From NCBI GenBank assembly GCA_024137785.1, contig JAHRHZ010000025.1, forward strand, positions 30,649,624-30,707,185: a stretch of 57,562 bases of DNA. Reading direction: 5' to 3'. This document shows, one piece after another, positions 3,020 to 52,327 of the stretch; the stretch's first letter is position 1, and each line of letters opens with the position of its first letter. The translations under genes were made by a program, and so were the position numbers. The stretch is from Ginglymostoma cirratum (lineage: Eukaryota). Below the pieces are notes generated by a model that saw only the letters and a program-made list of their open reading frames with translations, ran no database searches and was not told the DNA's origin.

Positions 3020-3845
3020 GGACAGCAAGACTGTCCTAAGCAAGTGGTCTCCATTTTTGAATCATTGAGCTGGTATGCATTAAGCGACACTGAAATTGAA
3101 GGAATGGGGGGAGTATCTGGGCAGTTTTGTCCAGAACATAGCCATAACGCAGATGAAAAAAAAACATGAGCTCAGGAAAGGAAGGATATGACGGCTAGGA
3201 AAGCAGGTAGTGGGGATTGAGTAGAGATTGAGAACAAATAACTATAGATACCAGTCTGGTCAAATAAGTACAATGTACTCATTATCTGTGAGAACAAGAA
3301 AAGACAATGCAGATGAGGCAGCCACAATGCAGACCAAGTCATCATAGCTCAAGTGGGCGGTCAGAGTGGGGAAAAAAAAGAACAGAAATGCAGTACTAAC
3401 AGGGATTGTATAACTATAGGGATAATGTTGGCAAGGCACGAGCATTAAGAATGTCTTATGATGGCTGGAGGGGAATTTGGAAAGGGATGGGTAAACCAAA
3501 TTATTGTGGTCCATGTTGGAACAAATTATATTGGTAGGAACAATGAGGGGGTCCCATGGAATAACTAAATAAAAACCAAAAGAACAGCAAATGCTGGAAA
3601 TCAGAAACAAAAAAAGAAATTGCTGTAAAAGCTCAGCAGGTCTGGCAGCATCTGTGGGGAGACATCAGAGTCAATGTTTTGGGTCCAGTGAGCCTTCCTC
3701 AGAACTGATGGGAGCACATTTCTTTCCACAGATGCTGCCAGACCTGCTGAGCTTTTACAGCAATTTCTGTTGTTGCCATTGCCCATGGAAAGATTGTCAG
3801 GTATTAGGCTCTGAATTAAGAAGCTGGACCTCAAAGATAAAAGAA
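3020..3845 (+). mobile_element. Decayed CR1 ORF1 (SGNH esterase-like) remnant
   Basis: Translates to RNAVLTGD.. and IIVVHVGTNYIGR (cf. VHVGTND). It resumes after the hairpin insertion as KDCQVLGSELRSWTSK. Confidence 0.65.
3562..3781 (-). mobile_element. Fold-back Penelope-derived short element (family B) with putative 9 bp TSD
   Basis: Perfect inverted arms at 3615-3657 and 3726-3768. Flanked by cccatggaa at 3553-3561 and 3782-3790. Homologous to 5266-5504 and 49936-50035. Confidence 0.8.
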
Positions 3846-4757: not shown

Positions 4758-5265
4758 AGAAACTCCTCCTAGGGTGAGATACTTGCCTCTCAGATCTTAA
4801 TGAACTGATTGACAGGGGATCCATTAGTTGCTTTGCCAGTGGTGGCATAGTGTTTGCTGTCAACTAAAATGCTCACGCCACACTGAGAAAAAGCAGGCAA
4901 GTCTTGTCCCTCATTCACATTCTAAAATGCAGGTAAGAACATATTGTGAGAGATGGATGATATTTGGGAAAACTGCAACAATTTACATGAAGACATTAAT
5001 AAACTTGAAAAGTGGGCAAATAGTTGGCAAATGAAGTTCAACACAATGTGAGGTACTACATGTTGGTTGGAAGAAAAGGATGATCCGTTATTAATTTAAA
5101 GATCATGTGGGGTAGAAGAAGAGGACCAAGGGGATCCTAGCATAACTTCAGTAAATGCTGTGACACAGGTTATCAAGACTATTAACGTTATCAAAGCAAG
5201 CACTAGGTTTTAGTTCTGGACGGACACAATTATTTTAAAAATCATTAAATGAAACTGAACCTGTA

Positions 5266-5504
5266 AAAAGTAAAATGAAAACTGAAAAAAACCTGCGGAT
5301 GCAGTAAATCAGAAACAAAAACAGAAATTGCTGGAAAAGCCTAGCAGGTCTAGCTGCAACTGTGGAGAGAAATCAGAGTTAACATTTTTGGTCAAGTACC
5401 CCTTCTGAGGAAGGGTCACTCAATCTGAAACATTAACTCTGATTTCTCTCCATATTGCTGCCAGACCTGCTGAGCTATTCCAGCAATTTCTGTTTGTTGT
5501 TTAA
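5266..5504 (-). mobile_element. Fold-back Penelope-derived short element (family B) with putative 8 bp TSD
   Basis: Inverted arms (~5312-5400 and 5405-5500) centred at cccttctgaggaaggg. The repeat aacctgta lies at 5258-5265 and 5505-5512. Confidence 0.8.
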
Positions 5505-5595
5505 AACCTGTACTAAACCTTGGTTAGACCATAGCACGACAAGCAGTTCAGCTTACCATATTTTTACAATAATGGATATAAAGGAAATGATTTGT

Positions 5596-8243: not shown

Positions 8244-8978
8244 GAGGAAGAAGAATACCTCTTCCAGGTTTTCAAGGATAATGGATATCCAAAAAACTGG
8301 GTCAGAAGATGCCTACACGAACATCATCAGGAAGATACTACACACCCCGACACACTCATCACACTACCCTACATCAGGAACACATCGGAACTAATCACAA
8401 GACTCCTACAACCGCTGGGCATCAGAGTGGCACACAAGCTCACATCAACCCTACGACAACTGCTCACCCGAACTAAAAACCCACTCCCTGCCATGGACAG
8501 GACTAATGTCTTCTACAAGATTTCCTGCAGAGACTGTGAGAAGCACTACACAGGACAAACAGGAAGGAAACTAACAACTAGGGTACACGAACACCAACTG
8601 GCTACAAAAAGACATGACCAATACTCACTTATCTCAATCCACATGGATAAGGAGAACCACCAATTCGACTGGGACAATACCAAAATCCTGGGACAAGCTA
8701 AGAAGAGACAGGAACAGGAATTCCGAGAAGCCTGGTACTCCACGAAGAGAGCCATCAATAAACACAGGGAACTCGATCCCATATACACTCCACTACGAAG
8801 GAAAACCAGAAGTGAGGCAATCCAGCTCAACAGACTCCAGAGTTTAAAGACCTGGCGGAAAACACACCAACGATTCATCGGAGGCTGCACTGATGATGTT
8901 ACCCAGCATGGTAACGAAACATCTGCGGAACAACAAACCAGCTCGGCGAGCCAACCAACCTCAACACCCACAACCTGA
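8244..8978 (+). CDS. Partial PLE polyprotein: RT thumb and GIY-YIG endonuclease (5' truncated, frame still open)
   Basis: The open frame from 8244 reads EEEEYLFQVFKDNGYPKNWV...LPYI...NVFYKISCRDCEKHYTGQTGRKLTTRVHEH...HQFDWDNTKIL...EAWYS. Confidence 0.85.
   Translation, partial: EEEEYLFQVFKDNGYPKNWVRRCLHEHHQEDTTHPDTLITLPYIRNTSELITRLLQPLGIRVAHKLTSTLRQLLTRTKNPLPAMDRTNVFYKISCRDCEKHYTGQTGRKLTTRVHEHQLATKRHDQYSLISIHMDKENHQFDWDNTKILGQAKKRQEQEFREAWYSTKRAINKHRELDPIYTPLRRKTRSEAIQLNRLQSLKTWRKTHQRFIGGCTDDVTQHGNETSAEQQTSSASQPTSTPTT
8885..8928 (+). ncRNA. Type I hammerhead-ribozyme-like motif
   Basis: Stem I is CTGCA/TGCGG and the core CTGATGA lies at 8890-8896, followed by an extra T. Stem II is GTTACC-cagcat-GGTAAC, then GAAAC-ATC. 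Confidence 0.75.
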
Positions 8979-9400
8979 GCTACAGATCTACTCCAATACC
9001 TTAGACACAAAAAAGTTTTAAGCTGATGTGTCATTTAGATTTATATTGTACGTTTTTTTGAATCACGCAACTGTTCTTTTCTTTCATTCATATCAATGAT
9101 TGTAAAATGGTTGGGAATAAGTTCTGTGCATTCAGTTTGCCTCATTGTAGTGAAATGGAACATCTAAAGAGAGAAATGGTATCCTGACTGAAAAACTGCA
9201 TCATGGGTTTGACAGCAAAAAATTTGACTTGAGTACATGTGACAATAAAGCTTAAATCAATCATATTAAATCAAAATTTGCTCATGTTTGCAAATTAATT
9301 TTGAAATTTGCTGGAACTGAGAGAGAAAAATAGGTCCCCCTAGAACTGATGATTGATATAGGTATTTGAGATAACAGCCAAGCAACTGCTTATTGAAGCT

Positions 9401-10989: not shown

Positions 10990-11650
10990 CTCCACCGATG
11001 GAGTCATATCTAGCATAAATGAAGATGATTATAGTTATGGGAAGTCAGTCATTTCAGCTCCAGGACATCTCTGCAGGAGCTTTTCAGCCATGTGTCCTAG
11101 GGTCCAAGCATCTTCAAAAGTTTCATCAATGACCTCCCCTCCACCATAAGGTCAGAAGTGGGGATGTTCTTAGATGATTGCACAATGTTCCATACCATTC
11201 GCAATTCCTCAGAAACTGAAGCAGTCCATGTTTAAATGCAGCAAGACTTAGACAATATCCAGGTTTGGACCGACAAGTGACAAGTAGTATTTATGCCACA
11301 TTAGAATCAGGCGATGACCATCTCCCTTAGAGACAATTGAACCATTGTTCCTTGACATTCAATGGCATGATGATCACTGAATTCCCCATTATGAATGTCT
11401 TGGGGTCGTAGATCAGAAGCTAAACTGAACTAGCCATATAAATACTGTGGCTACAAGAGCAGGTCAGAGGTTAGGAATCCTGCAGCAACCTCCTGATTCC
11501 CCAAAGCCTGTCCACCATCTTTAGGGCATAAATCAGGAGTGTGATGGAATACTTCCAAATTGCTCGGATGAGTGCTGCTCCAACAACACTCAAGAAGCTT
11601 GACTCCATCCAGGACAATGCAGCCTATTTGATTGGCACCACATCCACAGA
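10990..11650 (+). mobile_element. Decayed non-LTR retrotransposon RT region (CR1/L2-group)
   Basis: Reads FINDLPSTIRSEVGMFLDDCT (cf. FADD) and QQDLDNIQVWTDK*Q. Homologous to 24640-24990. Confidence 0.8.
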
Positions 11651-12920
11651 CAGCTCAAATTTATTTGTTTAGAAATCAATCCAATTCAGTAGATGAGTCT
11701 GAGGTTCTATAACCCTCAACACCTCATCTGCATTCTCCTTCCATACCAACCACTTTCCCTCATCGTATGCAAGCTCTGTGACAATATTGGACTGTACTAG
11801 AGATGCTCATAAAGGTCACAAAATAAAGTTATTCAAAATATGCATACAAAACCATCATCTTACTAGGAACCCATAAGATTGTCAAAGTAAGCAAGAAATG
11901 GTTATGGGGACAAGAACCCCACAGTGAGGCTGACTCATCATTTTTAAAAGTTACCAATGCCAGGTTGGTCACATTTTGGAACAAAAATGCTCATAAGCCT
12001 TAACCATGAAAGCTAAGCTGTTTAAAGAAAGGTGAAAGTTGATCTATGACTACTTTGGAAGTAAATAAAATCAATTCACTGGTCCACCTGTACATAGAAG
12101 GTTTCAAGTCTGGGACAGAGAAGTATTAAGACAATGTCTCTGCATATTTCCAATGGTAGATTCACCCAAATACTCGTAGGCCAATGTACAACAATATACA
12201 GAGGCTAAGTGTAAAATTAACTATTGCCAACACAAAAATGTGGATTTATTTATCTAATATTGCTGGTGTTATGTAACTAAAATTGTTAGTTATCATAAAT
12301 CAAAGCCTAATTTACACCACATACACTATTCATCAAATCAAAAAGATTTACTACAACTAAGCCGAAACATCCATTGTTTAATTGCTTGCAATTTTCCACT
12401 ATTTTCATCAAACCTATCTAGTGAACTCATGTATGCTATTGTCAGTAATTGAATTTGGCCAGTTTGCTCAACTGAGAACAACATTTGGAAAGAAATCTTT
12501 TCCTAAATCCACAAAGTTTTACCTTAACAGCATAATATTGTTTACAGGTCACAAAGTTTTTATCTTAATAAACCCTTGATCTTTAGCTTAAAATCCATAT
12601 AAGCCCAAATGATAAATATGTTTGTGGAATTGTCTATCATAAATGTGTATGTTCTGGCATCACAACATTTGCTGATAAAAACCTATTTTTTTCTTTGTCA
12701 CATATTTTCACCTTTTGTGTAGTCATCTTTATTATCCAACAGGGAATAGCAATATAAATAAGAAAATGATCTTTACCTAAGGAGGATCAAATAATTCACC
12801 CTTGCATTAGTAGCATTTTCTAAATCCATCATTTAGATATATAATTTAATTATATAATGCACGTAGTAGATGTACTTTTTTAAAGTTATATATGTACTAT
12901 GCCACATTTGAATGGAAGAC

Positions 12921-13130
12921 TTAGAATCAAAGAACGATACAGCACAATCAGGACATTCAGCCTATCGTCTCTATGCCATCCCTACAAATAGAGCTACCCA
13001 ATTTGTGCCATGTTACAGCTTTCTCCACAGACCTCTATCTTCCCTTCAAGTATACACTGAGTTCCTTTTTAAAAATTGCTTACAAATTTGGTTCCTCCAT
13101 CCATTTGGATGCTGAATTCCAATACACAGA
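12921..13130 (-). mobile_element. CR1 3' end remnant
   Basis: Antisense tail ttagaatcaaagaacgatacagcac...cattcagcc. Confidence 0.55.
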
Positions 13131-13398
13131 AATTTGTGTAAAAGCAAACATTTGTACCTGTCACCATTGGTTCTCCTGTCAAAATATGCTGTGTTTGGTT
13201 CCTGACTTCTATTGCTACTACGGTGTTTTTTTACTCAGTGTGACAAAAATGTCCTTATTATGAACAATTATGAAATTTACCTTCAGTCTTCTCTGATATA
13301 AAGAAAACAACTTCAACTTTAGGTTCTTAGTGACAAAACTAAGTGAAGTTCCAAATTATAAACACAAACATGCTGCAATACAAAATATCAAATATTAT

Positions 13399-13960
13399 TT
13401 AGAATCACAGAACGGTTACAGCACTGAAGAAGGCTATTTGCTTTTTTCAAATCTGTACAGGCTCTCTGCAGGAGCAATTTAGCAAATCCCCGTCCCTCTT
13501 CCTTTCCTGCTGATTTTCAAGATTATTTTTCTCTTCAGATTTAATTCCCTTTTGAAAGCCACAATGAACCTGCCTTCATAATTTCCTCGGGCAGCATATA
13601 TCAGATTCTTGATGTATCTATGCTTTCTAAAGGGAGTTAGACTGTGGGATAATACAGAAAGAAAGCAGGAAAATGGCATCAAATGAAATACTTACTTGGA
13701 GAACTGGTGCCATCATGATATGGTGAACGGCCTCTGGTATGTGCTGTATTAATTCTGTGATTCTATGATCTTTGGTTCTTTGGAAATCACCTTAAATTTG
13801 TGTCCTCAGTTCTTGATCTTTCCACAACTGGGATCATTTTCTTCCTATCAACTCAATCTCGACCCATTAGTCTGAACAGCTATCTCAAACCTCCTTTCAT
13901 TTTTTGCTTCTCTGTAGAGAACAACCCACATTCTTCAATCACAATGCTTTCATCGCTGGA
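13399..13960 (-). mobile_element. CR1 3' end remnant containing a + strand CR1 tail (~13620-13770)
   Basis: Antisense tail tagaatcacagaacggttacagcactgaagaaggc; internal sense tail ctgtattaattctgtgattctatga. Confidence 0.6.
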
Positions 13961-14928
13961 AAAGTTTTATGAACTGCTTTTTAATTTGTTTAATTTTGCT
14001 GCACTTCATCAACAACAGTGTAAGCTACAAAGTTTTAGCCAATGCAATAAACTGAACTTGTATAAGAATAATTTAAGTAGGTTAGTTTTGCTTTATGTAA
14101 GTATTGTCTTAGCATTACTTGATGAGTTAGTTTTCCTATTTTGAATCCTTGTAAAGCAATATGACTTCTGTTAAAATAATTTTCACATTTCTTCAGTCAC
14201 ATTAGCTGTTCAGATGGAAAGCATATTCCATCTCCTAGCAAATGTGCATTCATTGTACATCTTCTCAATAAAAATATAAAAATACAAATTCCTATCTACT
14301 AACACAAACATGCTGTGGATTGTGGAAAGAAGTAAAAATATCACAGTGATGAATTCACTAAGGAAAGCCTTGCCAACAAGATAGCAATCCTTTCATTTTA
14401 CTTTGTCTGCTGTGGCATTCATGAATTTTCAACTGAATACGTCCAAAAATAGTATCATCTGAGCTTACCAATAAGTAGCACATTGACTGGGAAAAAGTGT
14501 GCTTACGTACATAATTGTACTCAAATTTGCAACTGAAATTAAGCATGGTGCAATCCCAAACTCTTACATTGTATATACGACTGTCATAAGTCCATTCTTC
14601 AAAGCAGTGCATATAAAATAATCAGAAAGACAAAATAATGACTAATTATGAAAATAAATACCAGCACACAAAGGAAAGTGGGTGTTTTTTGCTTGTTGAG
14701 CTTGGTATTAATGGTATCATTTCAAAATGACATTGATAGCCTGCTCAATTTGCCATTTCAGAGCAGCTGATGCTGTTTTGCAAGGGGTGTGAAAGGATAC
14801 TGAAAGTGTGCCTATTTTTTAAAAAGTACTTTTACAGTGCAAGTTGAGAACCCAGAACTTCAAGTGCAATTGTTTGGTTAAATTAGTTTGGATGTGCAGT
14901 GTGAATGGTTTGATAGTTTTTTTTAAAA

Positions 14929-16145: not shown

Positions 16146-17066
16146 TGGTCCATTTTGGACCTTATTGTCTCTCACATAGATTGCAGCCAGTTACCAACAC
16201 GCAGCTGAAATTTACACTCCTGAGACAGAGGGTTCAGAGGCTGGAGATGGGAATTTATTCACCCAATAGACGGCCTATTCCCTCTGTTCTGCCACTCTTA
16301 ATATATTGTCAGCAGTGGGGTTAACATTCTTGCCAGTAGGTCAATTGAGATTCTTAAGTGTGCAATTAATTCCCAATTAATGGCCCTGTCTTGTTGCCAG
16401 TAGGGCTTAACCAGGGGCAGCAGAAGCCCACATCTGACAGCCGGGCTGGTAGGTTTTCCAGGGCGTCAAGATTTTTAAGGCCCACATTGCTCTCACCACA
16501 TTTGTCCTTTTAAACTACACCTGTGACCTGCTCGTTTCACACCAAAGATGCCAAAACACTGACCCAAATGCCAGTCCAATGCCCTGATTGGCCAGCAGTT
16601 CTCTGAGGTGGGACTTTCTGTCTCAGAAGTCCAGCTCCTCAGTACATTGCAAGCTACCATTTAGTGCTTACCGGGAACAAGTGTTCCCTTTGGTGGGCTC
16701 CCTTCCACCTTAATCCTTAGCCTAGGAGAAACGGTCAGGAAGAAAATCCAGTGTCTCATGTAATTTGTCCCAAAGAATGGAAACAATTTATGGCACAGAA
16801 GGAAACCATTCAGCCCAGCTTATCCATGCTATCCAGCCTGATCCTACTTTCCAGCTCTTGGTCCAGAGCTCAGCAGGTTCCAATATCTCAAAAGCATGTG
16901 TTCAAGTGAGTTACACAATTTTATTAATGCAACGATGATTTCAGCCTCTAAAACTCTTCAGCTCCTCTGTCTGAAAAATACAACAGCAGCCCGTCAAATT
17001 TTACTCCTGCCTGAAATTCTCCTTTCTTGAGGTTGTTGACTTGCTCGCTGAGCTGACTTGTTTTTG

Positions 17067-17108
17067 TTCAGATGTTTCATCACCATGCTAGGTGACATCA
17101 TCAGTGGA
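17067..17108 (-). ncRNA. Hammerhead-ribozyme-like motif (antisense arm copy)
   Basis: Reverse complement is CTGATGA-T-GTCACC-tagcat-GGTGAT-GAAAC-ATC, with CpG-type decay. Confidence 0.6.
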
Positions 17109-17214
17109 GCCTCCGATGAAGCCATGTTATTCTACTCCGCTTGGAATTTATACTGTCTGGTCCGTCATGGTATAAATTCCAAGCAGAGTCGAATAACATC
17201 GTGTCATCGGAGGC

Positions 17215-17256
17215 TCCACTGATGATGTCACCCAGCATGGTGACGAAACGTCTGAA
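17215..17256 (+). ncRNA. Hammerhead-ribozyme-like motif (intact core)
   Basis: CTGATGA(17219-17225)-T-GTCACC-cagcat-GGTGAC-GAAAC-GTC(17250-17252). Confidence 0.75.
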
Positions 17257-17409
17257 CAAAAACAAGTCAGCTCGGCGAGCAAGTCAACAACGTCACCCAC
17301 AACCCGAGATACAGATCTTTACCGATACTTTATTCTCCATTCTTGATAACAATTGTTGTAAATCTCCTCTGTACACTCTCTTTACCCGCATCTACAAAAT
17401 TAAAGGCAT

Positions 17410-17595
17410 AGTTCAGCTGGACTATAGGGCTGCTCTCTCATTAGAGAAAGATGACCAGCGGTGATTTAATCTGCGAGTCAGCAGGCCTGAGGTGAGGCAA
17501 GAGTTCAAGCAGGCGACTCCTTCATTGTAACCTCAGCCAGTGCGGGAATTGACCCCACACTGTTGGAAATATTCTGCCTTACCAGCCAACTGACC
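17410..17595 (-). mobile_element. tRNA-derived SINE remnant (non-HE1 family)
   Basis: Reverse complement has a B-box-like ggggtcaattccc followed by ctggctgaggttacaatgaagg...ctctaatgagagagcagccctat. Confidence 0.5.
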
Positions 17596-20414
17596 TCCAA
17601 GCCTGTGCAGAATCATATCTAGCATAAACATGGGCTTGAAGGTAAGAAAAGCAAAGTTGAGAAATGTAGAAGGGAAAATTACCCATGTAATAAAAATGAT
17701 ACACTCAGTTTCTAAAACCTAATCTTAATTGGTTGCTTCAAAGCAAACTCAAGATTAATTAAATAGGAGACGAGGTTAAGCTAAATAAAATTAAAATTGA
17801 TCAGAGAAGTGTTGCTCAGGGTTGTCAGATGTGTCAACAAACTATAGAGTGAACAGGTATTTATACATTCACAGAGAAAGATCTTCTCACATCAGCCACT
17901 GTCTTGAACAGGGTGGTATCAACCAAATTGAAGGATTTCTAGCGAAGGGAATAAAGGTCAGATTTGAAGGTGAATAAACTTGTACAGTTCAAATGATTAC
18001 AGGGCAAGAATTACCAAGGGGCTGGAAGCAGATTTTTCCCTGCCATCTCTGCTGGAGAATATATAGTGAGGAGTAGCTCAGAAGAATTAAAGGGAAAATA
18101 TAAAATAAAAAAGAAGTCTGAGCAGCGACTAACTAAAGGTTTTTAAAATTACACAGATTTTTGAAAGGGAGATGGAGGAGATGTCTAAAAACTAACAGCA
18201 GATTTTTCTCAAAGTGACTGTCTGTGCTCCAAAAGGTTAAGTACAGCTATCTTCTCTCTGCTACCTTGCACTCACTGTAACTCTGCTTTTGCACCCACAT
18301 CTATCCCGCCAAAGGTTCATGGTTTACCACTCTCAATATTACATGTAGTGTCTTCCTTCAAAGGCTAACACACACTCTATCCGCAAAACAACTAACCATA
18401 TCTGACCTCTGTGATTCCTACTCACTTACCTGGGATCCCTCACCAGGGTTCCTGACTGAAGACAGAGCAGGACTCTGGCTGACCACAGTTCCCCCTCACA
18501 GGAATAAGAAGTGATTTCCTTAAACTTGCAGAAATGGCCATTCGGTTGAAGCACATTCAATGTGTTTGCCACATAAGCTGCTGGCACACGTTGTAAGTGA
18601 GACATTGACATGGCATGGTGCCATATATCAACATATCCACCCCTTTGACTGTTTACTCCTTGCAAACATAACAAGCTGCCTGGCTTTCTGTTTGTATGAT
18701 AAAGCAAGGCAAGTTGAAGTTACTGTGAGCATCCAAGTTAGCGTTAAGATAGCAAGTGAAAAGTCCTAAGATGTATCCTACTCTGATGTGTGAAATGGGT
18801 GCCTGCACCTGTAAGCAATGTGACCTAATAGCAGTATTGCAATGGAGGGTGATGGTGAATTCCAAGATGCAATATTGAAGTGAAGAACTGTATTCTAAGT
18901 GAGTTGGTGAGGTGTCATTAGGATGTGCTGAGGCTGGTGTTTTGCTGAAGTCAACCTCTGTAGATGGGGGTTACAGGCAGTCACTGCCCTGTGAGTTGGG
19001 GAATACTGGCCAAGCTGGATACCTGGAGAAAATGCCAGGGAGCTGCAGCAACTGCACTGACTTTCATGTTGGGAATTGGTGCCATTCAGTTTCCCTCCAG
19101 TACCCAGGAAAATAGCAACCTGCATATAAATGCAGTGAATTAGGCAATAATGCGATGTTAATGCATGTTTAGTGGTGAGATTCCCAACTAGCTGTCTGAA
19201 ACTTCAGCAGAAAATAGGACTTCATTTTCCCAACATCCAGAATCTCATTGTTTCATTTTCATTGTATTTTCCCAATGGTCTTGCTATGGTTTATATCTTT
19301 CTGTTTCTGGGAAAATTCTGCCCCAAAAGTCAATTATATAAAGGGCTGAATTTTGCTGTAATAATAATGGTGGAACTGTCAGTGTTCCCCATGATTAATC
19401 CACTTTAACTGACTGCACTACTGCAGCTTGCAAATGTACAGTTGAATATAGAAATCTGGAACACATTGTCTGTGATTCACTATTGCCCCAATAGGATGTG
19501 CTATTGAGATTCCCTTGGATTGCAATCAAGCAGAAATCACTGAACAGACTGAAGTTGCCTTTATAAGTTATAAGACACACTGTAAGTACCCTTAAATAAA
19601 TTACATCTGTTTATATAAGGTGTAACTAGGTATTTAGAATGCTTACCAAGTTCAGAGTTATTCCTGAAGAACAACAATGGCCTTCAAATCTAACGTAATA
19701 TTTGTGAAATATCATTGTTTTTTCATTATGGTAAAGAAATCATATCTTTATTCCTGTGATATATCCCAATCAATTAATTTTACTGTCCATAAGCATTTAA
19801 ATAAAAGTGAAAAATTCAGTGTGCTCTACTTTCTGATTTACTGTCTGTGAGAATGCGTCAATGTAATTAGTCACTTACTCTGCTTGATGACTTAATTGCT
19901 GTTCGCTGCCTTTGGATCCCCATGACTCAGTGCGAAGATTCAAACTGGCATTGGGAAATGTGAAATTTGTCCCAGACAGATTGTTAGATTTTTAGGGGAA
20001 GTTTTCTGCAAGGTTACTGGTGAGTAAATGAAAACCGAAGTTATTTACTAATAATCAGGTGAAATGTTTTACCAAAAGAATGGGGAGAATGCAGAACTTG
20101 CTGGAGTAGTTGAGTAAATGGGATAAAAGTGTTAAAAGAAAAGCTAGATCAGGAAGAAAAGAACAGCAAAATACCCTAGTAGTGTGGAGTATTAACACTT
20201 GCACAGACAAGTTGAGCTAAATGACCTGTTTCTGTGTCATAACACAACAAAACTGTTAGAATAAATAATGCTGTTTGTGGGCATCAATACAAATGAGGTG
20301 ATTTTTTTCTCCCAAAAACGGCAAAGTGTAATAGCCCGTTGGAGGTATGCCAGATTCTGATCCATTCCAGCTTTTAATGATTAATCTTGACATTGCTGTA
20401 CAATACTGGAACAA

Positions 20415-26505: not shown

Positions 26506-26685
26506 TACTAAGTGCATTGAGTTAAAACCGATCTAGCACATTCAAAATTGTGCATCTAAGAGATACTGTGGCACATCATCAGTAGCAAGATTTTACTAAG
26601 TGCATTGAGTTAAAACCGATCTAGCACATTCAAAATTGTGCATCTAAGAGATACTGTGGCACATCATCAGTAGCAAGATTTTACT
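26506..26685. repeat. Perfect 2 x 88 bp tandem duplication
   Basis: Units start at 26506 and 26594 and are identical, with 'tact' microhomology at the junctions. Confidence 0.95.
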
Positions 26686-26704
26686 CCAACATAATTTGCA
26701 ACCT

Positions 26705-26932
26705 GAGATAACAGGGTGTAGAGCTGGATGAACACAGCAGGCCAAGCAGCATCAGAGTAGCAGGAAAGCTGATGTTTCAGGCCTAGACCCTTCTTCAGAA
26801 AATGAAGAAGGATCTAGGCCTGAAACGTCAGCTTTCCTGCTCCTCTGATGCTGCGTGGCCTGCTGTGTTCATCCAGCTCTACGCCCTGTTATCTCAGATT
26901 CTTCAGCATCTGCAATTCCTACTATCTCTGAA
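26705..26932 (+). mobile_element. Fold-back Penelope-derived short element (family A) with 14 bp TSD
   Basis: Inverted arms of ~93 bp centred near 26800 plus a ~37 nt tail. The repeat ataatttgcaacct lies at 26691-26704 and 26933-26946. Confidence 0.92.
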
Positions 26933-29191
26933 ATAATTTGCAACCTAAAGGATTACCATATCCCTCACCCTTCCACTACCAACAAGCCAGGAAGTCAATC
27001 CTGGATCAATGCCAGGTGCAGGAGGTCATTCCAGGAGCAGTATCAGGCATATCTAAAAATGAGAAATTGTGTTTTTTTGATGGTCAGGGCAGCTGTTTGA
27101 TAAGCAAACAACGGCGAAAGGGATGAGGAAAAGCATGAAAAGAGGGGGAAAGAAGGAACAAAATGACAAAGAAGCACTTGAAGATGCCTAGAATGAAGAC
27201 GCTATCTGAATTCTGACAAGGTGAGAACTGCAGCAGCAACAAGCAGATTTGACAGCAATTCAATAACTTGTTGGATTTGGAAATTTTCTAGCAGAGATCT
27301 GGCCTAATTTCTCATCAGAATGTGAATATCCACACAAGCTCACTGCTAAGGATGTGCAGTAGCATTGTGGCACAGAACAAGAAGCAACTTTCACTCAAAT
27401 GCAAAAACAAACCCAACAGCAGCTTGACAGCAGAGATGTTCAATCTGAAAGAACATCTTGCATTGATCAAGTATTCCACCATGGGATCCACAATAGCAGG
27501 ATCCACAGCAACATCACCCGAGGAATGTGCAGGTACCAAACATACTGACAAGATCAACTTACATGCATTTCACAAATAGACAAAGTGGAATGCTGTAGAG
27601 ATAACGGATGACATACAGAGACTGGCAAAAGTGGGACTGACTAGAACTGACTAAATTTTGTTCATGAATGGATTATGTTTTGTTGATCACTTATATTATG
27701 TAGTATATATCTGCAAATGGTAGTGTTTGCAATTTTCTTTTACAGTTTCCTTCATAAATAGGAGTATTTTGCATGTTATACTATGTTTAGCCAGACAATC
27801 TCTATGTCTTCTGTAACTTGCTTTCATTTTAGTTTGTAGGAGCTATTAAGACAATTATTTGAAACAATCTTCATAACACAAAATCAGCCCAAGAGTGCAA
27901 AACATCAAGTTGCAACTTGAACATAAAGTTTGAATCTTGTCAAGTCAAAATCTTTGAAAGACTTAACAATTCAAACTATTGTAACACAAATACAATTGCT
28001 TCTGACACTCAGGATACACTTCAGACATTTGACAACCATCACTGATTATCTGTTTCTACAGTGCATCGCTCCATTTCATAAAAAAAAGGGGCCAACGCTG
28101 TAGGTCATACTGGCCATTACACAAGATATTAATTTTATTTGAGCAACACAGAAGGTGCAATCTGGAAATGCTTATGTGCCATAAATATTAGTTAACGGAA
28201 ATTCTCTCAGTTATAATTCACCCGCAAGTGTGCCTGACAGCCAAGTGCCAAATAACTAAAACCTTCTTGCCTTTGTACACTACTTGTTCATCTCATTCCA
28301 GTCCTTCTATTATTTTCTACCAAAACTCAAGAATTTGTGGGCCTTAATGGACCTTAGAGAGAGTTAAAGGAAAAAAACTTTGTTATTCTTAAAATAATTG
28401 TATGTCAACTCAGTGGATGTCTGTACAAGGCTTGTGTGAAATTCCTTACTTTCAATGGTGTTTTCTCATCACATTAAATAGTATTTGTTTAATGACATTC
28501 TGCCCACCTCAGGCTTCTGACCCAGATAATACAGTGAGCCAGCATTATTGTCACATATATAGCCCTAACAAAGCAACTCTGTGTTCATGACAGCATTACA
28601 ATAAAAACAATGGTGCTTTTCCCTAGACTCCTTACAGCAAACATTACTGTTCTTATTAACCAGTTCCTACTAAGGTCCACAAATAGCAAAGAGTCAACCA
28701 ATGAACAAGGTAAGTGAAATATGAAGCCATGGTATAGTCAAAAAGGGTGTATAATAAGCTTTGAAACATGGTAACATTATAAAATAGGACTAACATGAGT
28801 ATACATACACATGTCAGGGGCAACACAAATTGAAGTGAAATTTGAGTGAGGACACTTTTTCTATTGCTTCTGACCTCACCATTGATGAATAATAAGTTCG
28901 CCCATCACCAGCAACCTTTAGGTCAGGAGCATATAGTACAAGATGGGGTGTGACTGAACAATCTTGTGTGAACTAAGTAGTGCTGAAATCTGGTATACTG
29001 TAATTATGGCTCATGTGCAACCTGGGAAGCATTAAAATTCCCTCCAGAAATGAGAGTTATCTGTAACACTGAGTAGAAAAGCAAACCACTGGTGTGGGGA
29101 GTCGCTATCATTCATCATGCAGCACTTATTCTATGAAAGCATGTGTTAAACTCTTATCCAATTTCACAACACAGTCCCGCTTGATCCCTTT

Positions 29192-33090: not shown

Positions 33091-33726
33091 TTGCGGTAGA
33101 AAAAATTCAGGGAGGAAATTCCAAGCACATTACATAAGTGACCAAAGGCAATGTTACTATGGGTGAGTGAAGAGGTCAGAGTCAGAAGACAAGAGAGTTC
33201 TGGAGGAGGTGTGGTATTGGAGGAGTCCTATAGGTAGGACAGCATTGTGCCATAAACAGACTTGAAGGCAAGGATTAACATTTTATGGTGAAAGCACTGA
33301 TTGACCAGAAATCAATATACGCTATCAAAAATGGTCATGTATGTTTGCCAGGAAAGGCTGTCGGATAAAAAATATGGAGACCCCTTTCAATAGGCATGAG
33401 ACAAAATGGCTGGATTGTCCAATGGCCAAATAATCATTTTTACAACTGTAAATGGAAGTTGCACATGTGGACTGAGTGGAATCTCCATCATAGTAGACTT
33501 TGGAGGATATGCCTGGGAAATTGAAGACGACACTCAGCAATTCCTCTACATATGGTACTGTCTGAAAATATCAATTTACATCAAAGAATTCAGATGGTTC
33601 CACTGCAGTTAAGTAACTTGTTGCATACGAAAAGTTAGACTTTTAGATGCCTACTCTAACTCCTGACTAACTGTTCAATGGAACCCCCCAGCTTGCCTCA
33701 CACACCCCAACCACACCATCAGCTCA

Positions 33727-35560
33727 AGGAACCTGAGTGGAATCTCCTGTCAGAAACATGTCGCTCACTTATTGCATTAAAAACAAAGGAGTGGGGGTGA
33801 ATCTTCATGAAAGTGCCACTCCTCAGAATTCCGGCCCATTGTTTTCATTTTCTTTAATGAAGGCAATTGTGATTATTTAACATATTGCTTACCTTCAAAT
33901 TGGAGCTTTATTAAAATCTAACATGTTAGAGCATAATTTGAATGTATTTTTAAATAGATGACTGACTATTTGGTCTCCTGCCCTGAGAACATGGTAATTT
34001 TGTTGTGTCTGAGGAAATTTTCTCAACTGCATCTTCTCTTGAGGCCTCTTGCACATCAAACCAGGCACACTCCATATCCCAAGTTTGGAACCCATACCCA
34101 AAAGCTAAGACCCTCCTCTGCCACCGGGTCTGAGCCCATTTTCTCGCCATTGGATCTCTCCCCATACTACTCCAGCCCCACTCTGCCATCCCCCTGCTGC
34201 TCTGGACCCCGAACGCCTTCTCCCACCACCAGATCCAGTCCCTCCTGTTCTGTACCCAATAGCGAAACCCAACTTCAATACCCCCATGGGCCTCTATGCA
34301 ATTCCCACCCCCTCCCCTGCCACATCACTGCTCTGAACCTGACTCCTGCTTCCCCCACCTTCCTCCACTGCTGGAGCTGTCTCTTGCATTCCAGACCCAA
34401 CAGCTCCCTTCCCATGCTCCAGACTTGCCCACCCCAGCTTCTTTGGCCCACTTTGGATCAAAATCCCTCTTCCCCTTTTTTGGACCTCACCCTCCCTTAC
34501 AATGATACGAGCCCAAACTTTCCTGCTTTAGACTTGACAGCCTCACCGTCCTGCTGAACTGTTATCTACCCAAACCCAACTCAATCGGAACCCACTCCTC
34601 AGGGTCCAATATCTATCCCACACCCAGGACTCTACCCATGCCACCTTGTGACTTGGCTCCCTATCAACCTGGCACCCCAGTCCCTACCCATTAACCTCAC
34701 ACTTGCCTTATGCACCTTCCCTTTGACAGCAGCTCTCAAAGTGGCTATCTGTGATGCTGGACGTCTGAATTTCAGAAAACACTGTGAGAAAGAGGGCACA
34801 GTTTGCCTCCTCAGGAATGTTTGGGACCACGAAAGACCTATCAGAATGGAAGTGCAGTTCTGCATTTCTGAAGGATCACTGATCAGAAGCTCCTGTCAGA
34901 AATGCAGGGCTCTTTTGTCACACAAATAAAAGGAGCGGTGTTGCAATCTGCATGATATTGCGATAAATCCTGCTCTATGCAATTTCTACGGGCCCATCTG
35001 CTTAATATGTCATTTGAATGCATCATGGCTAATCTTGTCATTTTGTCCTCCTTTAGGTTAAATAAAGACTCTTGATTTATTCCAATATCCTCATTTCACT
35101 TCAAACAAAATCAGGATTTACCTCCTTCTTGATATGCTTGTCTTTTCTAAGTGCGAATGCAGAGTACTCGTTAAACAATCCCGATGCCTCTGGCAATAAT
35201 CATATTATATCGGCATGTCAAAATGCCAGTGGGTCTATCAGGTTTATATCCTTCACTGGGGCATCTAAGCATCATCTTATTTCATTCCTCTTTCCTCAGA
35301 CCCTACAAAATTACCATATTCTGAGGGCAGGAGACCAATTAATCAATCATCTGTTTAAAAAAGCATTCAATTTATGCTCCAACATGTTAGATTTTAATAA
35401 AAATCCAATTTAAAGGCAATCAATATATTAAACAATCAGTAAAGCCTTCATCAAAGAGAACAGGTTAGAATTTCTGAGGAGTGGCACTTTGATGGTAGAT
35501 ATTCTTAACGCAATAAGTGAGCTTCACATTTCTGACAGGAGATTCCACTCAAGTTCCTTC
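33727..35560. repeat. Long inverted duplication (33727-34020 versus 35291-35560)
   Basis: aaggaacctgagtggaatctcctgtcagaaa...ctgaggaaa is the reverse complement of tttcctcag...tttctgacaggagattccactcaagttcctt. ORFs 33895-34101(-) and 35072-35413(+) share their C-termini. Confidence 0.9.
34020..34995 (+). mobile_element. Non-autonomous C-rich repeat (MITE-like); an inverted homolog lies at ~35460-36780
   Basis: 34740-34905 aligns with the reverse complement of 35525-35685. The C-rich 34050-34740 segment mirrors the G-rich 35700-36260 segment. Confidence 0.6.
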
Positions 35561-36295
35561 AGAAATGTGGAGCTTTACTTCCAATCTGAGTTCGCATGTC
35601 ATGGAGAATAATTGAGGAAGACAACCTACAACCCCTCTTCCTCCTTATTCTAAATTTAAAGGTCCAGCATCACGGACAGCCACTCTGACAAAATGTAAGT
35701 CTATGAGGTAAATTTGGGGTGAGGGTACTAGGAGAGGACGGTTCCAAACACATAGAGAGTATGGTACCAGGAGCTAGAGTACCAGGGCATATCGTAGCAA
35801 GGTAAGTGATCAAGAGTGTCGGGCAGGTCGGGCTGTGTGGGAGACATCAGTCAGCGGGAGTAAGGGATGTTGGGTTGGGAGTGGGGGGGAATGTGTGTTG
35901 GGTCTGAAGAGGGTGTAAGGAATGTCGGGTTGGGAGTGGGGGAATGAATGCTTGGTCTGAGGCAGGGGAAGGGGACATTGTGTCAGAAGTGGGAGAAGGC
36001 GGTGTGATCACCGAGTGACGGGAAAGGAGATTTGGTCTGGAAGAGGGGAAGGGATTTCGGATCAGTGGCAGGTTAAGGGGTCAGGTCCAGTTGTGGGATA
36101 TGGGGTGACCAGGTCCCAATTCGGGGATTGTTCAGTGCCACATATTGGGGGAAATGTTGAGTCCTGGGTGTTGGGTCAGGTGTGGTGGTAAAGAGGTGTT
36201 TGGGACAAGCTCTGGATGACATCTGGGCAATGTGTCATTTGGGGCATGTGTGGTAATTTGGGGATCAGCTAATTGTTACTCAGGTGTTAAACTAG

Positions 36296-43367: not shown

Positions 43368-46240
43368 TAGAACATAGAACTGTACAGCACAGGAACGGGA
43401 CCTTCAGCCCATGATGTTGCGCCACACACAATACCAAATTAAGCCAATCCCTTCTGCCTGCCCTTGGTCCATATTCCTTCATTCCTTGCATATTCATGTG
43501 CCTGCATAAAAGTCCCTTAAATGCCCCTACTGTATCTGCTTCCACCACTATCCCTGGCAGCACGTTCCACATTCCAACCATTCTCTGTGTAAAAAAACTT
43601 GCCCCTCACATCTCCTTTGAACTTTCCCCCTCTCACCTTAAATGCATGCCCTGTAGTATTAGACTTTGCAATTCTGGGAAAAAGATTCTGACCCTGTCGA
43701 TGCATATCATAATTTTATAGACTTCTACCAAGTCCCCCTTCAGCCTCTGCTGCTCCAGAGAAAACAACCCAAGTTTTTTATAGCCTTTCCTTATAGCTCA
43801 TACCCTCTAATCCATGCAGCTTCCTGATAAACCTCTTCTGCACCCTCTGCATCCTTGCTGTAATGTGGTAACCAGAAATGAATGCAATACCCTAAATATG
43901 GCCTAACCAAAGTCTGATAAATCTGCAAAATGACATCCTGACTCTTGTACTCAATACCCCAACCAATAAAGGCAAGCATGACATATGCCTTCTTTACTAC
44001 CCTAACTACTTGTGTGGCCACTTTCAGAGAGCTATGGACTTGAATCCCAAGACCCCTCTGTACGTCAATGCTGTTCAGGGTCCTGTCATTAACTGTGTAC
44101 TTTTCCTTAACATTTGACCTCCCAGACTGCAACACCTCACACTTACCTGGATTAAACTCCATCTGCCATTTCTCCACCCGTATCTGCAACTGATCTCTAT
44201 CCTGCTGTTTCCTTTGACAACTTTCTACACTATCCACAACTTCACTGATCTTTGTATCATCTGCAAACTTACTAATCCACGCATCAACATTTTCATGCAA
44301 GTCATTTGTATTTTTCACAAGCAGCTGAAGTCCTAGTATGGATCCCTGCAGGACCCCATTCATCACAGATCTCCAGCCTGAAAAACACTCTTCCACCACT
44401 ACCCTCTACTGTCTATGTGTAAGCCAATTCTGAATCCATATGGCCATGTCACTGTGGATCCCATGCACCTTAATGTTCTGGATGATTCTACCATGAGGGA
44501 CCTTGTCAAAAACCTTACTAAAATCCACGTAGACAACATCCACTGCTCTACTCTTGACCTCCTTGAAAAATTCAATCAAGTTAATAGGATATGACCTGCC
44601 CCACATAGAGCCATGCTGACTGTCCCTAATTAGGCCATCCTTTTCCAAATGCACATAAATCCTACGTGTAAGAATTCTTTCCAATAGCTTCCCAACTGTC
44701 GATGTGAGACTCACTGGTCTAGAGTTTCCTAAATTATCCCTATTTCCTGTCTTGAACACAAGAACAACATTAGCTACTTGCCAGTCCTCCAGGGTGTCTC
44801 CGGTGGCTAACGAGGATACAAAGATCTTGGTCAAGGCCCCAGAAATCTCCTCTCTTGCCTCTTTCAATAACCTGGGATAGATACCTCCAGGGTGTGAGGA
44901 CTTATCCACCCTAATGTTTTTCAAGAGACCAAATACCACTTCTTTCCCTAGCATATTAACATGCTTTACACAAATTTCACTATCCTCCATCTCCTTCTCC
45001 TGGGTGAATAGTGACACAAAATATTAATTTATGGTCTTGCCCACTTCCTCTGCCTCCAAGCACAAGTTTCCTCCTTTATCTTTGAGTAATCCTAGTTATC
45101 CTCTTAATTTTAATGCATGTATAGAATGCCTTGGGATTCTCTTTAATCGTACTTGCCAAGATCATTTCATGGTCCCGTCTTGCTCCCCTAATTCTCTTCT
45201 TGAGTTCTGTCCTGTTTTCTTTACATTCCTCATGGGCTCCGTTCAATTTTAGCTTCCTAAATCTTACATATGCTCCTTTGTTCCTTTTGACTAAATTCAC
45301 AACTTCCATCATCCAATGGTCACGTACCTTGCCATCCTCATCCTTCTTCCTTACTGGAACATACCAGTCCTGAACTCTGATCACTAGTTCTTTAAACAAC
45401 TCCCTCATGTCAAATGTGGATTTGTCAATAACAGCCCCTCCCAATTAAGACTCCCTAGCTTTTGACTAATACTAATGTAATTTGCCCTCCCCCAATTTAG
45501 TACCTTTTCGCGTGGTCGTGACTTATCCTTATTCATAGCTATTTTAAAACTTGAGGAGTTATGACCACTGTTTCCAAAATGCTCTCCCACTGAAAGGTCA
45601 GTCACCTGGCTCATTAGCCAATATAAGATCCAGTATGACCCCTCTTCTAGTTGGACTATCCACATACAATTTCAAGAAACCCTCTTGGACGCACTTGACA
45701 CATTCTGCCTTGTTTAAGCCTTTTGCTCTAAGGGTGTCCCAATCAATATTGGGGAAGTTAAAGTCACCCACTATGAAAACCCTGTTGCTATTGCATTTTT
45801 CCATAATCTGTCGACATATTTATTCCTCAATGACTCGGGGGCTTTTGGGGAGCCTATAGTGTAAGTTTGTCACAGTGATTGCACCCATCTTATTTTTGAG
45901 CTCAACCCATTTTGCCTCAGTGGATGAGCCCTCCAGTACATCCGCTCTGAGTGTAGATGTGACATTCTCTCTGATTAGTAAAGCAACTCCTCCACCTCTT
46001 TTACCTTCCTTTTTATCTTTTATAAAACAAAAAAAACCCTGGAACATTGAGCAGCCAGTCCTGTGCCTCTATCAACCAAGTCTCTGTAACGGCCACAACA
46101 TCATAGTCACATGCACTGATCCGGGGTCTAAGCTCATCTGCCTCACCTATAATACTCCTTGCCTTGAAACAAGCACACTTCAGCCCATTAATACCATTGC
46201 GTTCATTTACCCGTCTCTGCCTGTCCTTCCTTTCTGACTT
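43368..46240 (-). mobile_element. CR1/HER1 LINE with near-complete but disrupted ORF2 (APE and RT) and 3' tail
   Basis: Consecutive ORF fragments contain VAVTETWL, GGGVALLIRE, IVGDFNFPNIDW, NSRPVSLTS, DFSKVFDKVPH and KFADDTK; (ttctatg)n tail. Confidence 0.95.
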
Positions 46241-47144: not shown

Positions 47145-47670
47145 AAACTGGTGGTGTGATGGCAATTTCACTGATTAGTAATCAAGTAACACAGGCCAAC
47201 CTTCTAGGCACATAGGTTTGAATCCCACCATGGTAGGTCATGAATTTAAATGAAATTAGAACAGTGGCATAATAGCAACCATGTTGATTGTCAGAAAAAA
47301 CACATCTTGTTTGTTAATTTTTCAAGTCAAGTCACCCTTCCTCATAACTCAACCCAAAACATTAACTCTGATTTCTCTTCACAGATGCTGCCAGACCTGA
47401 TGAGCTTTCCCAGCAATTTCTGTTTTTGTTTCTGAGTTACAGCATCCGCAATTCTTTCAGTCTTTGTTTGCTAAAGTTCTTCAGAGAGGAAAAACTGCAA
47501 TCCTTGCCTGGTCTGGCCTATATGTGACACCAGGCCAATTGACATGTGGTCGATACATAAACTGGTGATTCTCAGAAATGACTCTTAACTTCCCTCGGGG
47601 GAATTACAGATGGGCAATAAATGCTACCCTATGCAGCGACACCCACATGTCATGCATGAATAAAGGAAAA
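47145..47670 (+). mobile_element. tRNA-headed short non-autonomous element related to the 5' end of the 25060-27065 LINE
   Basis: A-box-like tggtgtgatgg (47152-47162), B-box-like ggtttgaatcc (47215-47225) and an A-rich end ggcaataaatgct...atgaataaaggaaaa. Confidence 0.7.
47320..47463 (+). mobile_element. PLE family B terminal fragment with collapsed hairpin centre
   Basis: cacccttcctca...aacattaactctgatttctcttcacagatgctgccagacctg plus tail; possible TSD ttgtttg(t/c)taa. Confidence 0.75.
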
Positions 47671-48402: not shown

Positions 48403-49935
48403 TGCTCTATCTCAAGCCTGAGAACAGTATGCAGCCATTGTTTAAATGTGCAGTAACGTTTCTAAGGCTCTCACATGTAGTTGCTAAACCAATTCAACCA
48501 TTTTGGCAGTAATCTCTAGTCAAAGCCTTGGTATTTGAAACTGATTGAGTCACAAGATTGTAGCTACTGTGAGAAAAAAAAAACTGTTCAAGTGGTATAA
48601 TGGCCAAAGGGCAATGATATTTCTTTCAGTACGATTCATAACGTAAATTAATGATTAGATATTGTCAGTTGTTATGCTGCAAATAAAGAGTTCTGTTTGT
48701 AGCCATGAATTGAACTTTAAGACGCCTGTTATTCTAAAATGAGCTGCACAATTCATAATAAAGCAAAAGAAGTTAAAATCTTTGCCACTTATGGAAAAAT
48801 GACAACTGTGCTTTCAATTTATAGCTCCATTTTGCAGGTATATCAGGAAAAGGCTGGAAAGCGGAACTAGTTGAGTTATTCTAATAGAAACAACTGGAAT
48901 TGATATAATGGGCAGAATCTTGCGGAGGCTTGAACAACAAGGTCTATGGTGAGAATTGTAGTCGAATCATGCAAGATGTTCAGTGAGGCATGTCTTGTCC
49001 TTGGGGACCACTTGCTGCATCTTTTTACTAAATTTCCAGAGTGGAGGTGAGATGCTCAATGGCAGTGGCAGGTTGCCTGTTAAAGGGGGATTACTGTTTC
49101 TTAACAACTTTATTGAAACATACCTCTTTTATTCACTTCCTACCCAACCACACGGCATGAGCAAACCAGATGTTGAGAATTTAACAACATGGAAATCAGA
49201 GCAAGCAGTTGGTGACTCTGCTTGATATTGGCTCTGAAGAACCTCCACACTGGTCACTTGTTTTCATTTTGTATTTTTACACTATGTCTCTATTTATATA
49301 CCCAACGATTCACAAGCTTTATTAACAGCTGTTTCAAGTTGCCTGGCCACCTTCAGAGAATGATGCACTTGAATCCCAAGGTCCCTAAGCTCCTGTACTC
49401 CCTTCAAGTGTGCTATTGAGCCTGGATTGTCTCTCAGTGTTTCTCCTACCAAGGTGCATTAGCTCACATTTCTCTGCATTGATATTAACCTGCCAGATGG
49501 TGTCTGCCCATTTGGCCAAATTGTCAATGTCCCTTGGAAGTTGCTCAGTGTCATCCTCACAATTCACTATTCTCCCAAGTTTCGTATCATCTGCACATTG
49601 AGAGATTTTGCCCTCATCAATCATCTCCATATCATTTATATAAATCAGAAAAAGCAAGGGCTCAAACGCAGATCCCTGGGAAACTTTTAACTTGTCTCCA
49701 ATCTGAGAAATGCCTTTCTATGCCTTCCCTCTTTCTCCTATCTTTTTAGCCAACTTCTAATGCATCAATCTCAAACATTTCTAATTGGTAACCAATCTGC
49801 CCATGTCGCACCATATCAATTGCTTTCTGAAAATCCAAATATACATTATTCATAGCACCACCCTCATTCACAGCCTTTATCATCTCAAAGAACTCAACTG
49901 AATTTGTCAAAAATGTCCTGCCCTTGACAAAGCCA

Positions 49936-50035
49936 ACAATGAAAACAGAAGTTGCTGGAAAAGTTCAGCAGGTCTGGCAGCATCTGTGAAGAGAAATCAG
50001 AGTTAACGTTTCTGGTCTGGTGACCTTTCCTCAGA
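49936..50035 (-). mobile_element. 100 bp single-arm PLE family B insertion with 9 bp TSD
   Basis: acaaagcca lies at 49927-49935 and 50036-50044. Removing the insert restores CR1 QHGFVKG. The element starts TCTGAGGA-AAGGTC-acca-GACCA-GAAACGTT. Confidence 0.9.
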
Positions 50036-51430
50036 ACAAAGCCATGTTGTGTCATATTAACTTGCTTTTTCTCTAAGTGTACATTTATCCTGTATTACGG
50101 CCTCTAACAGTTTTCCCACTCCTGATGTCAAGCTGACAGGTCTATAGTTTCCTGGGTTATCCTTTGCCCCTTTCTTAAATAATGGTGTCACATTTGCAAT
50201 CCTCCAGACCCATGGGGCTGATCCTGCATTCTGAAATGCCTGTAAAATTCTTGTCAAAGGGTGCACAATTTGTTTCCTTTACTTAATGTAAATGTAAGAT
50301 ACATCCTATCCGGGTGACTTATCTACCTGGAGTGCGGCCAGCCATTTTTTGCACTTCCTCTTTATCTGTCACTATACTGCTCAGTTGCTCAACACCCACA
50401 TTTTCAAATAGGCCATTGTCACTATTTCCTAATTTTCTAAAGAGAGAAACAAAGTATTAGTTTAGTACCTCTGCTGTACATTTTGCTTATCCTAATTGTT
50501 CCTTATGGACCCCACTCTAACTGCCACTAATATTTTACTATTAACATGTTTAAAGTACATTTTATTATTTGTTTCAGCACAGCCTGACATCCTTTCCTCA
50601 TGCTTCTTCTTAGCCTTCCGTATTCTAGCCTTATCCTCTCTTGTACATTTGAGATCTTCTTCCTGATTTCTACTGTTATGATTATTCCAGTGCACCTCAT
50701 ATGCCTCCATTTTCTCCTTTACTTTCTCATCAATATCCTTAGTCGTCTGGGTTACTCTAGTTTGGATAGCCCAGATTTATTTATCTAGGTTGCACCCTAT
50801 TCATCTTTTTTGAAATTCTCCCATTTTTTATCCATCTTATCCACCAAAATATGTTCCAAATCATCCTGCTCCAGTTCAACTTTTAAACCCTTAAAATCTA
50901 CCCTTTTACAGTCTGGAATCTTAATCCTTCAATGATTATTATCTTTTTCCAACTTAATATTGATTCTTATTTTATTATGATTGGTACTTCCCATATGCTT
51001 TCCCATTCTGATGTTGTCCATTTGGCCTGCCTGATTTTCTAGGACCAGATCCAGTACAGCTCCCTCGCTGGTAAGGCTGGAAATGTTCCAGAAAGTTCTC
51101 CCCTTCCATGCCCCATACTCTAGCTTTCTACCTGAGGGTAACTGAAATCACCAACCATCACAACCCAACCTGTCCTGCAGACCTCTATAATCTGCCTGCA
51201 AATACGCTCTTCTTTTTCCTCCCCACTATTTGCAGGTCTATAAAAATACCCAGCAAGGTCACTGCTCCCTTCCTGTTTCTCTTCTTTAACATACAGATTC
51301 TTATTTAGGAATTACATCTTGTTTAAGGGCTATGATACTATTCGAATCTCCTCCCTTTTTATATACCTGTGTCTATTAAAAACCTTATGACCCAAGATGT
51401 TAATCATTCTGTCCTGTTCTGGCTTACTGA

Positions 51431-52309: not shown

Positions 52310-52327
52310 ACTGAAAGAGGTTATTAT

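Follow-up and report, generated by a model that had tools for sequence, protein, structure and literature searches.

A Hammerhead-Bearing Fold-Back in Ginglymostoma cirratum as a Probable Head-to-Head Remnant of a Penelope-Like Element

Introduction

Penelope-like elements (PLEs) leave insertions of a recognizable shape. An inverted pLTR accompanied by a tail and a target-site duplication (TSD) is given as the typical structure by Arkhipova et al. (2013, PMC3846280), and a 5'-truncated copy that lies inverted alongside, with a tail of 30-40 bp, is described by Craig et al. (2021, PMC8557442), whose text on integration refers to the mechanism as undefined. The pLTRs of metazoan PLEs carry minimal hammerhead ribozymes (min-HHRs), for which opposite-strand pairs about 100-700 bp apart were noted in 2014; the min-HHR of D. 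virilis has a helix I of 2 bp (Cervera and de la Pena, PMC4209133). The Poseidon protein of the anole (Anolis carolinensis) is described as cutting and extending both target strands, with two start sites that are separated by the tail (PMC11167929). The architecture of the locus considered here is already known in its parts, as publications exist on inverted pLTRs with tail and TSD, on hammerhead pairs in opposite strands and on siRNA that derives from inverted repeats of Penelope. Neither a two-primer model for PLE inversions nor PLE hairpins of sharks were found in the literature searched, which took in a minority of the subscription journals.

As a single locus, the fold-back has little importance, and its value lies in being a clean fossil of PLE integration. 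Its junctions reveal which arm donated the loop, and this separates a route in which both nicks prime a cDNA from one in which a single strand primes itself.

Layout of the fold-back

The window (the whole stretch of DNA that was analyzed, 57,562 nucleotides) contains a fold-back at 17016-17346, with the following features.

17016-17030, no strand: left candidate TSD, matching 17332-17346 at 14 of 15 positions
17028-17153, minus strand: left arm, an inverted tail-less pLTR copy, recognized by inverted-repeat pairing with the right arm
17071-17104, minus strand: putative minimal hammerhead core, damaged, with ACAU for ACGU and a G-U at 10.1-11.1
17154-17171, minus strand: loop, family sequence by which the left arm extends further 5', with family depth continuing to 17171
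17170-17295, plus strand: right arm, a sense pLTR copy, 81% identical to the PLE end at 8875-9003
17219-17252, plus strand: putative minimal hammerhead core with CUGAUGA, an extra U, a 6-bp helix II and GAA-ACGU-C; helix I of 2 bp
17296-17331, plus strand: PLE tail of 36 nt, on the right arm only, with family ends at both of its limits
17332-17346, no strand: right candidate TSD, matching the left one, its junction crossed by an orthologous contig

The arms measure 126 nt each, are spaced 16 nt apart and differ at 10 of 126 positions (7.9%); their starts precede the hammerhead core by 67 nt and 49 nt. The direct repeats that bracket them are identical at 14 of 15 positions, and none of 2994 random boundary pairs drawn from the same window with the same tolerance gave a repeat as long (maximum 14). 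The duplication is a candidate called from its sequence and position. Its last three nucleotides on the left (TGA, 17028-17030) coincide with the tail-less end of the element as a microhomology, and GT at 17170-17171 forms a 2-nt overlap between the loop and the start of the right arm, junction overlaps of 2-3 nt being of a size that can also arise by chance.

A preliminary description of this DNA had proposed most of this layout. Its 15 bp TSD and its 16 nt loop are borne out by the repeat statistics and by the spacing of the arms, and its view of the insertion as lacking an ORF holds in substance, the arm containing just the last codons of a PLE frame. The arms are present but longer than the approximately 122 bp given, since the outer 4 nt, 3 of them in the left TSD, had been omitted; the unpaired tail is likewise present, at 36 nt and not about 40.

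The differences between the arms are spread over both of them, four of the ten being CpG transitions and none compensatory, which fits arms that were identical at insertion and then decayed neutrally. A Fisher test on the CpG sites rested on a doubtful ancestral CpG at 17190 and was set aside. About 75 nt downstream of the fold-back lies another high-copy repeat (17420-17566); its reverse strand near 17543-17557 resembles a tRNA B box, and the repeat is probably a decayed SINE.

The source element

The right arm and tail (17204-17332) are 81% identical over 129 nt to 8875-9003, the end of a second PLE in the window.

8244-9003, plus strand: a PLE of its own, truncated at the 5' end and from a related family; it keeps a remnant of a GIY-YIG-like ORF, a hammerhead at 8890-8923 and a tail

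The frame in 8244-9003 encodes 244 aa and matches the Pfam GIY-YIG domain weakly (E = 0.1), while its first matches in the ESM Atlas, at 0.96, belong to mostly eukaryotic clusters with GIY-YIG on 15-20% of their members. The translation of the right arm shares its frame with the C-terminus of this element. A TSD around 8244-9003 was looked for and not found. With respect to an ORF of the parent element, a GIY-YIG remnant was found only in this 81%-identical relative, with its weak Pfam match, and no reverse transcriptase (RT) was seen; the RT and the clade of the parent are those that the neighbor would suggest. The element may be Poseidon-like.

Fold-back 17016-17346 therefore very probably comprises two head-to-head copies of the 3'-terminal 160-180 nt of a Penelope-like element with a high copy number. 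The features of EN+ PLE insertions are present, namely a hammerhead-bearing pLTR, an adjacent inverted 5'-truncated copy, a one-sided tail of 30-40 nt and direct repeats at the boundaries, and each structural feature tested in the sequence identifies the element as an EN+ PLE insertion that is truncated and carries an inverted copy.

The hammerhead cores

The preliminary description had placed one hammerhead-like core on each strand, and both cores were found, but the minus core is damaged and helix I is short. The core boxes of the min-HHR (CUGANGA, GAA and UH), with the extra nucleotide before helix II, occur in both arms. The G10.1-C11.1 pair and the palindromic 15.2-16.2 are kept in the plus arm and lost in the minus arm. 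In both arms helix I comprises 2 bp next to the core, followed by a mismatch, which falls short of the 4-5 bp expected of a min-HHR; in the copy at 8890 it comprises 5 bp. None of the Rfam hammerhead models matched at E <= 1, the three matches in the window being sub-threshold hairpins, and a mir-609 match on the fold-back (Rfam, E = 0.94) is attributed to chance. Unconstrained folds of the single arms gave no hammerhead fold (z -0.2 to -0.8), as is expected of dimer-type cores: such minimal cores need a dimer, and each strand here has a single core.

Family copies and the orthologous site

Copies of the family were sought among contigs from four DNA runs (of 20 listed), representing four samples of a related organism, that were aligned to 16731-17630 at 80% likeness. 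The family data thus describe the related organism and not the genome of the window; its joints, loose ends and pieces are cited from a listing beyond which a further 70, 2071 and 52,442, respectively, exist, and counts made among the listed ones are to be read as at least the number given. Per run, 11,476-14,720 contig pieces aligned, with the depth peaking on the element, indicating a high copy number of the family. Between the window and two contigs that span the junctions, the flanks diverge by 3.7% and 4.8%, and the same differences recur in several samples, so that the organism looks like a related species.

The orthologous site in this organism is filled. Its left outer junction, from the left flank into the inverted arm, is present in a contig covering 16733-17061 (runs X3 and X12), and its right outer junction, from the sense arm through the tail into the right flank, in a contig covering 17279-17446 (X1, X3 and X12). 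The presence of both junctions in independent runs rules out an assembly artefact, and the filled orthologue indicates that the insertion predates the split between the species. No joint that skips the insertion, as an empty site would, occurs among the 15 of 85 joints listed.

The two arms also share a rare letter. A17056 and its counterpart T17267 are found in both, in a position where about 97% of the family depth has G/C, indicating that the arms stem from one template or subfamily, the variant being present in only about 3% of the family. Arms from different subfamilies, which the preliminary description had named as the mark of two insertions, are thus not what is seen. At 17292 the family letter is C in about 95% of the depth.

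The ends of the family copies cluster. Loose ends at 17028 number 156-195 contigs per run, and 59 contigs in X1 end at the mirror position, 17295. Another 116-152 contigs have loose ends at 17320, share about 11 further letters (placing the tail end near 17331) and then enter mixed flanks. The tail-less end and the tail end are therefore both preferred ends throughout the family.

The loop and the point of inversion

Family depth passes from the left arm through the loop as far as 17171, where 105-128 contigs per run exit into a common upstream sequence (agreement 0.75-0.80). The depth in X1 is 38,762 at 17166 and 1,080-1,215 at 17202-17203. Read as an extension of the left arm, the loop fits the copy at 8800-8890 better than in the other orientation (18 versus 13 of 32 positions). 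The loop is ordinary family sequence, donated by the tail-less arm.

Other copies fold elsewhere. Seven joints of the element were listed, of which two are marked as fold-backs by sense-oriented filler (17123 to approximately 17203, and 17116 to approximately 17247, each at single-copy depth) and five are ambiguous. Two joints flagged as lying on opposite strands were rejected as fold-backs, since between arms that mirror each other such joints amount to ordinary continuations or tandems. None of the 32 pieces listed bridges the center under a 31-letter rule, and a fold point common to many copies was not found, the joints varying among the rows listed. One contig, seen in three runs, aligns over the center by 25 letters (17028-17196, about 80% identity) and may represent another copy that folds near the same point. 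The preliminary description had set a replicating hairpin family, to be known by its fixed loop, against per-insertion products, to be known by variable inversion points; the loop runs on into upstream PLE sequence and the other arm joints listed differ, which speaks for the latter.

Other fold-backs and repeats in the window

Two other families account for a further five fold-backs with hammerheads, at 1-131, 3553-3790, 5254-5520, 26691-26946 and 47307-47474, giving a density of at least six in 57.6 kb. The arm that is longer at the center is the tail-less one in four of the six, the tail-bearing one in one, and probably the tail-bearing one in the last, which is cut by the edge of the window. 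The sample, a small one, agrees better with two primers than with one route only.

The fold-back at 26691-26946 is complete, with a 14-nt TSD, a tail-less left arm with a 2-nt overlap, a loop of 4-5 nt at the 5' edge of the hammerhead and, on the right, a tail that measures about 33 nt; directly to its left lies a perfect 88-nt tandem duplication (26506-26681). The sequences at 1-131, 3553-3790, 5254-5520, 47307-47474 and 49927-50044 are fold-back or single-arm PLE stubs with TSD candidates of 9-11 nt. Within the two other families, that of 26691-26946 included, 7 of 11 arm 5' ends fall no more than about 4 nt away from the C that opens the hammerhead core, a crowding that is absent in the family of 17016-17346. 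Hairpin master copies, an RT stop or a real 5' end of the RNA could account for it; one of the crowding families has a CAG just upstream that is like a 3' splice site. The inverted arm at 47307-47345 consists of the hammerhead core only, ends at the predicted cleavage site and overlaps its TSD by about 5 nt, and this single case may have been primed on cleaved RNA.

Repeats of other kinds are also present. The minus strand of 43791-45444 has broken frames that resemble the reverse transcriptase of a CR1/L2-type LINE. Long inverted repeats at 33723-34017 and 35291-35562 (170 nt at 85% and 61 nt at 87%), with some 1.3-1.7 kb between them, are possibly a decayed DNA transposon. A 291-nt direct repeat (51424-51714 and 52321-52611; 90% identity, 897 nt apart) lies round a copy of a dispersed, SINE-like family.

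The predicted double-stranded RNA

The plus strand of the fold-back folds at a predicted -219.7 kcal/mol (z = -26), as stably as none of 100 shuffles, and it includes a paired run of 46-47 bp with G-U allowed. Forcing the hammerhead fold would cost 5-7 kcal/mol for one arm by itself and 59-64 kcal/mol for the complete element. A read-through transcript would, according to these folding models, bury the predicted hammerhead. The earlier proposal of a dsRNA stem that sequesters the ribozyme is thermodynamically sound at this cost, but the locus bears no sign of selection for pairing.

That the hairpin is now kept as a functional dsRNA, whatever its origin, as a source of endo-siRNA or an ADAR substrate, is highly improbable. 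The very stable predicted fold with its long paired run and the retention of the hairpin in the related organism would agree with such a role, and siRNAs are described from Penelope inverted repeats in transgenic D. melanogaster (PMC3681739). Against it, divergence between the arms has reached 7.9%, with none of the changes compensatory, and exceeds that of the flanks between the organisms (3.7-4.8%). No host exon was found in the 150 of 240 stop-to-stop frames (at least 60 aa) that were searched against Pfam, the remainder being 13 frames up to 42 kb, one of which was searched separately, and 77 beyond 42 kb; the scan gave a single weak match, to DUF4153, below the cut-off.

Origin of the fold-back

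The locus is probably best explained as a one-off, dead-on-arrival insertion in which just the 3' end of a high-copy EN+ PLE entered this site, before the split from the related species. An extreme 5'-truncated PLE insertion had been one of two options in the preliminary description, and the inverted 5' copy and the tail argue for it; the other, a self-contained hairpin element mobilized in trans, finds no support in a loop of plain family sequence and in fold points that vary.

Its most likely route, to which we would give a somewhat smaller measure of confidence than to the insertion itself, is a per-insertion product of two cDNAs that were primed at two nicks in the target, joined head to head and then left to decay. 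Read inward from the TSD, each strand is antisense to the element and begins at one of its two preferred 3' ends, the pattern expected of reverse transcription from two staggered nicks. The family ends at the tail-less and tail positions match the two RT start sites reported for the anole Poseidon (PMC11167929). By this route, a GIY-YIG endonuclease would have cut both strands 15 nt apart, after which one 3' end would have primed RT at the outer start site, giving the tail, and the other at the inner start site, giving none, perhaps aided by the TGA overlap. Synthesis of both cDNAs would have halted early, having passed the hammerhead core by 49 and 67 nt in the upstream direction, and the two would have been joined head to head via the GT overlap, and the arms would then have decayed independently. 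As every pLTR copy contains a hammerhead, the hairpin and its back-to-back hammerheads would be by-products of this process.

Among the alternatives, the one that stays closest to this reading keeps the same PLE stub and ascribes the inversion to self-priming (snap-back) on a single antisense strand, followed by repair. Self-priming has been proposed for rotifer Penelopes from palindromes at inverted junctions (PMC3846280), the GT overlap could pair with AC at 17152-17153, and the tail-bearing arm is the longer one in one or two of the six fold-backs of the window. The loop of this locus comes from the tail-less arm, however, whereas snap-back of a tail-bearing cDNA, in its simple form, predicts a tail-bearing donor; and snap-back from the tail-less arm cannot copy the 36-nt tail, so that a second priming event would still be needed. 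This makes snap-back unlikely, though less so than any of the other alternatives. It is decidedly improbable that the locus belongs to a hairpin family that is non-autonomous, has a fixed loop and is copied as one unit by a PLE reverse transcriptase acting in trans: 105-128 contigs per run leave the loop for upstream PLE sequence, no listed piece bridges the center, and at least two other joints occur at single-copy depth. The contig that crosses the center by 25 letters would suit such a family, the depth leaves room for a small one (up to about 3% of the loop depth), and the fold points of two fold-backs of another family (1-60 and 26700-26900) lie at most about 2 nt apart. There is equally little probability in the broader proposition that short PLE hairpins include self-propagating fold-back RNAs, with this locus in a small same-loop family beside families that fold at the 5' edge of the core.

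Two independent insertions at one spot, or a fold-back artefact of assembly, are the least credible of all. The great abundance of the family and the ability of PLEs to insert near themselves would favor a double insertion; but a single TSD brackets both arms, and these share the letter found in about 3% of the family. An artefact is contradicted by the 10 sites at which the arms differ and by the recovery of both outer junctions in independent runs of the related organism. Where PLE stubs are as dense as in such genomes, a genome-wide count could decide the priming route by computation alone.

Comparison with known systems

In the 5' inversions of L1 that arise by twin priming, both nicks prime a cDNA and the products are joined via short overlaps, the inverted part stemming from further upstream in the RNA. 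The two cDNAs of the fold-back differ from these in copying the same 3' segment, hence the palindrome. In a MITE or DNA fold-back transposon, terminal inverted repeats abut both TSDs; this class was rejected here, because the arms consist of PLE sequence and the right one is set off from its TSD by the 36-nt tail.

Non-LTR retrozymes (bioRxiv 10.64898/2026.07.22.740005) resemble the fold-back in being non-coding, hammerhead-bearing and derived from PLE pLTRs. As characterized in the text of that preprint, they are head-to-tail tandems able to yield monomers, whereas the fold-back is head to head with one core per strand; at least two head-to-tail units, each with a hammerhead, are needed for membership, which rules the fold-back out. 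With the min-HHRs (PMC4209133) it shares, as far as these are set out in that account, the core boxes, the extra nucleotide before helix II, the long helix II and the palindromic 15.2-16.2, and it differs from them in a helix I of 2 bp and in a minus copy without the palindrome and without G10.1-C11.1.

The likeness to the anole element Poseidon PAc (Frangieh et al. 2024, PMC11167929) concerns the hammerhead in the pLTR, the two preferred 3' ends separated by the tail, the AT-rich target and a TSD that opens with ATT. In vitro, Poseidon PAc cuts and extends both strands of its target, a behavior in which the fold-back would resemble it; inverted products are not modeled in the portion of that paper drawn on here. 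Closest of all are the insertions of EN+ PLEs such as Pen2a_Av, which, according to the descriptions available (PMC3846280), have the inverted 5'-truncated copy at the 5' end, the one-sided tail of 30-40 nt, the single TSD round the whole unit and a near-palindromic center. In contrast to Pen2a_Av, the fold-back has no ORF body between its repeats, and its TSD is 15 nt long, compared with 8-10 nt in the rotifer cases. It further departs from the canonical EN+ PLE insertion in that its loop can be traced to the tail-less arm.
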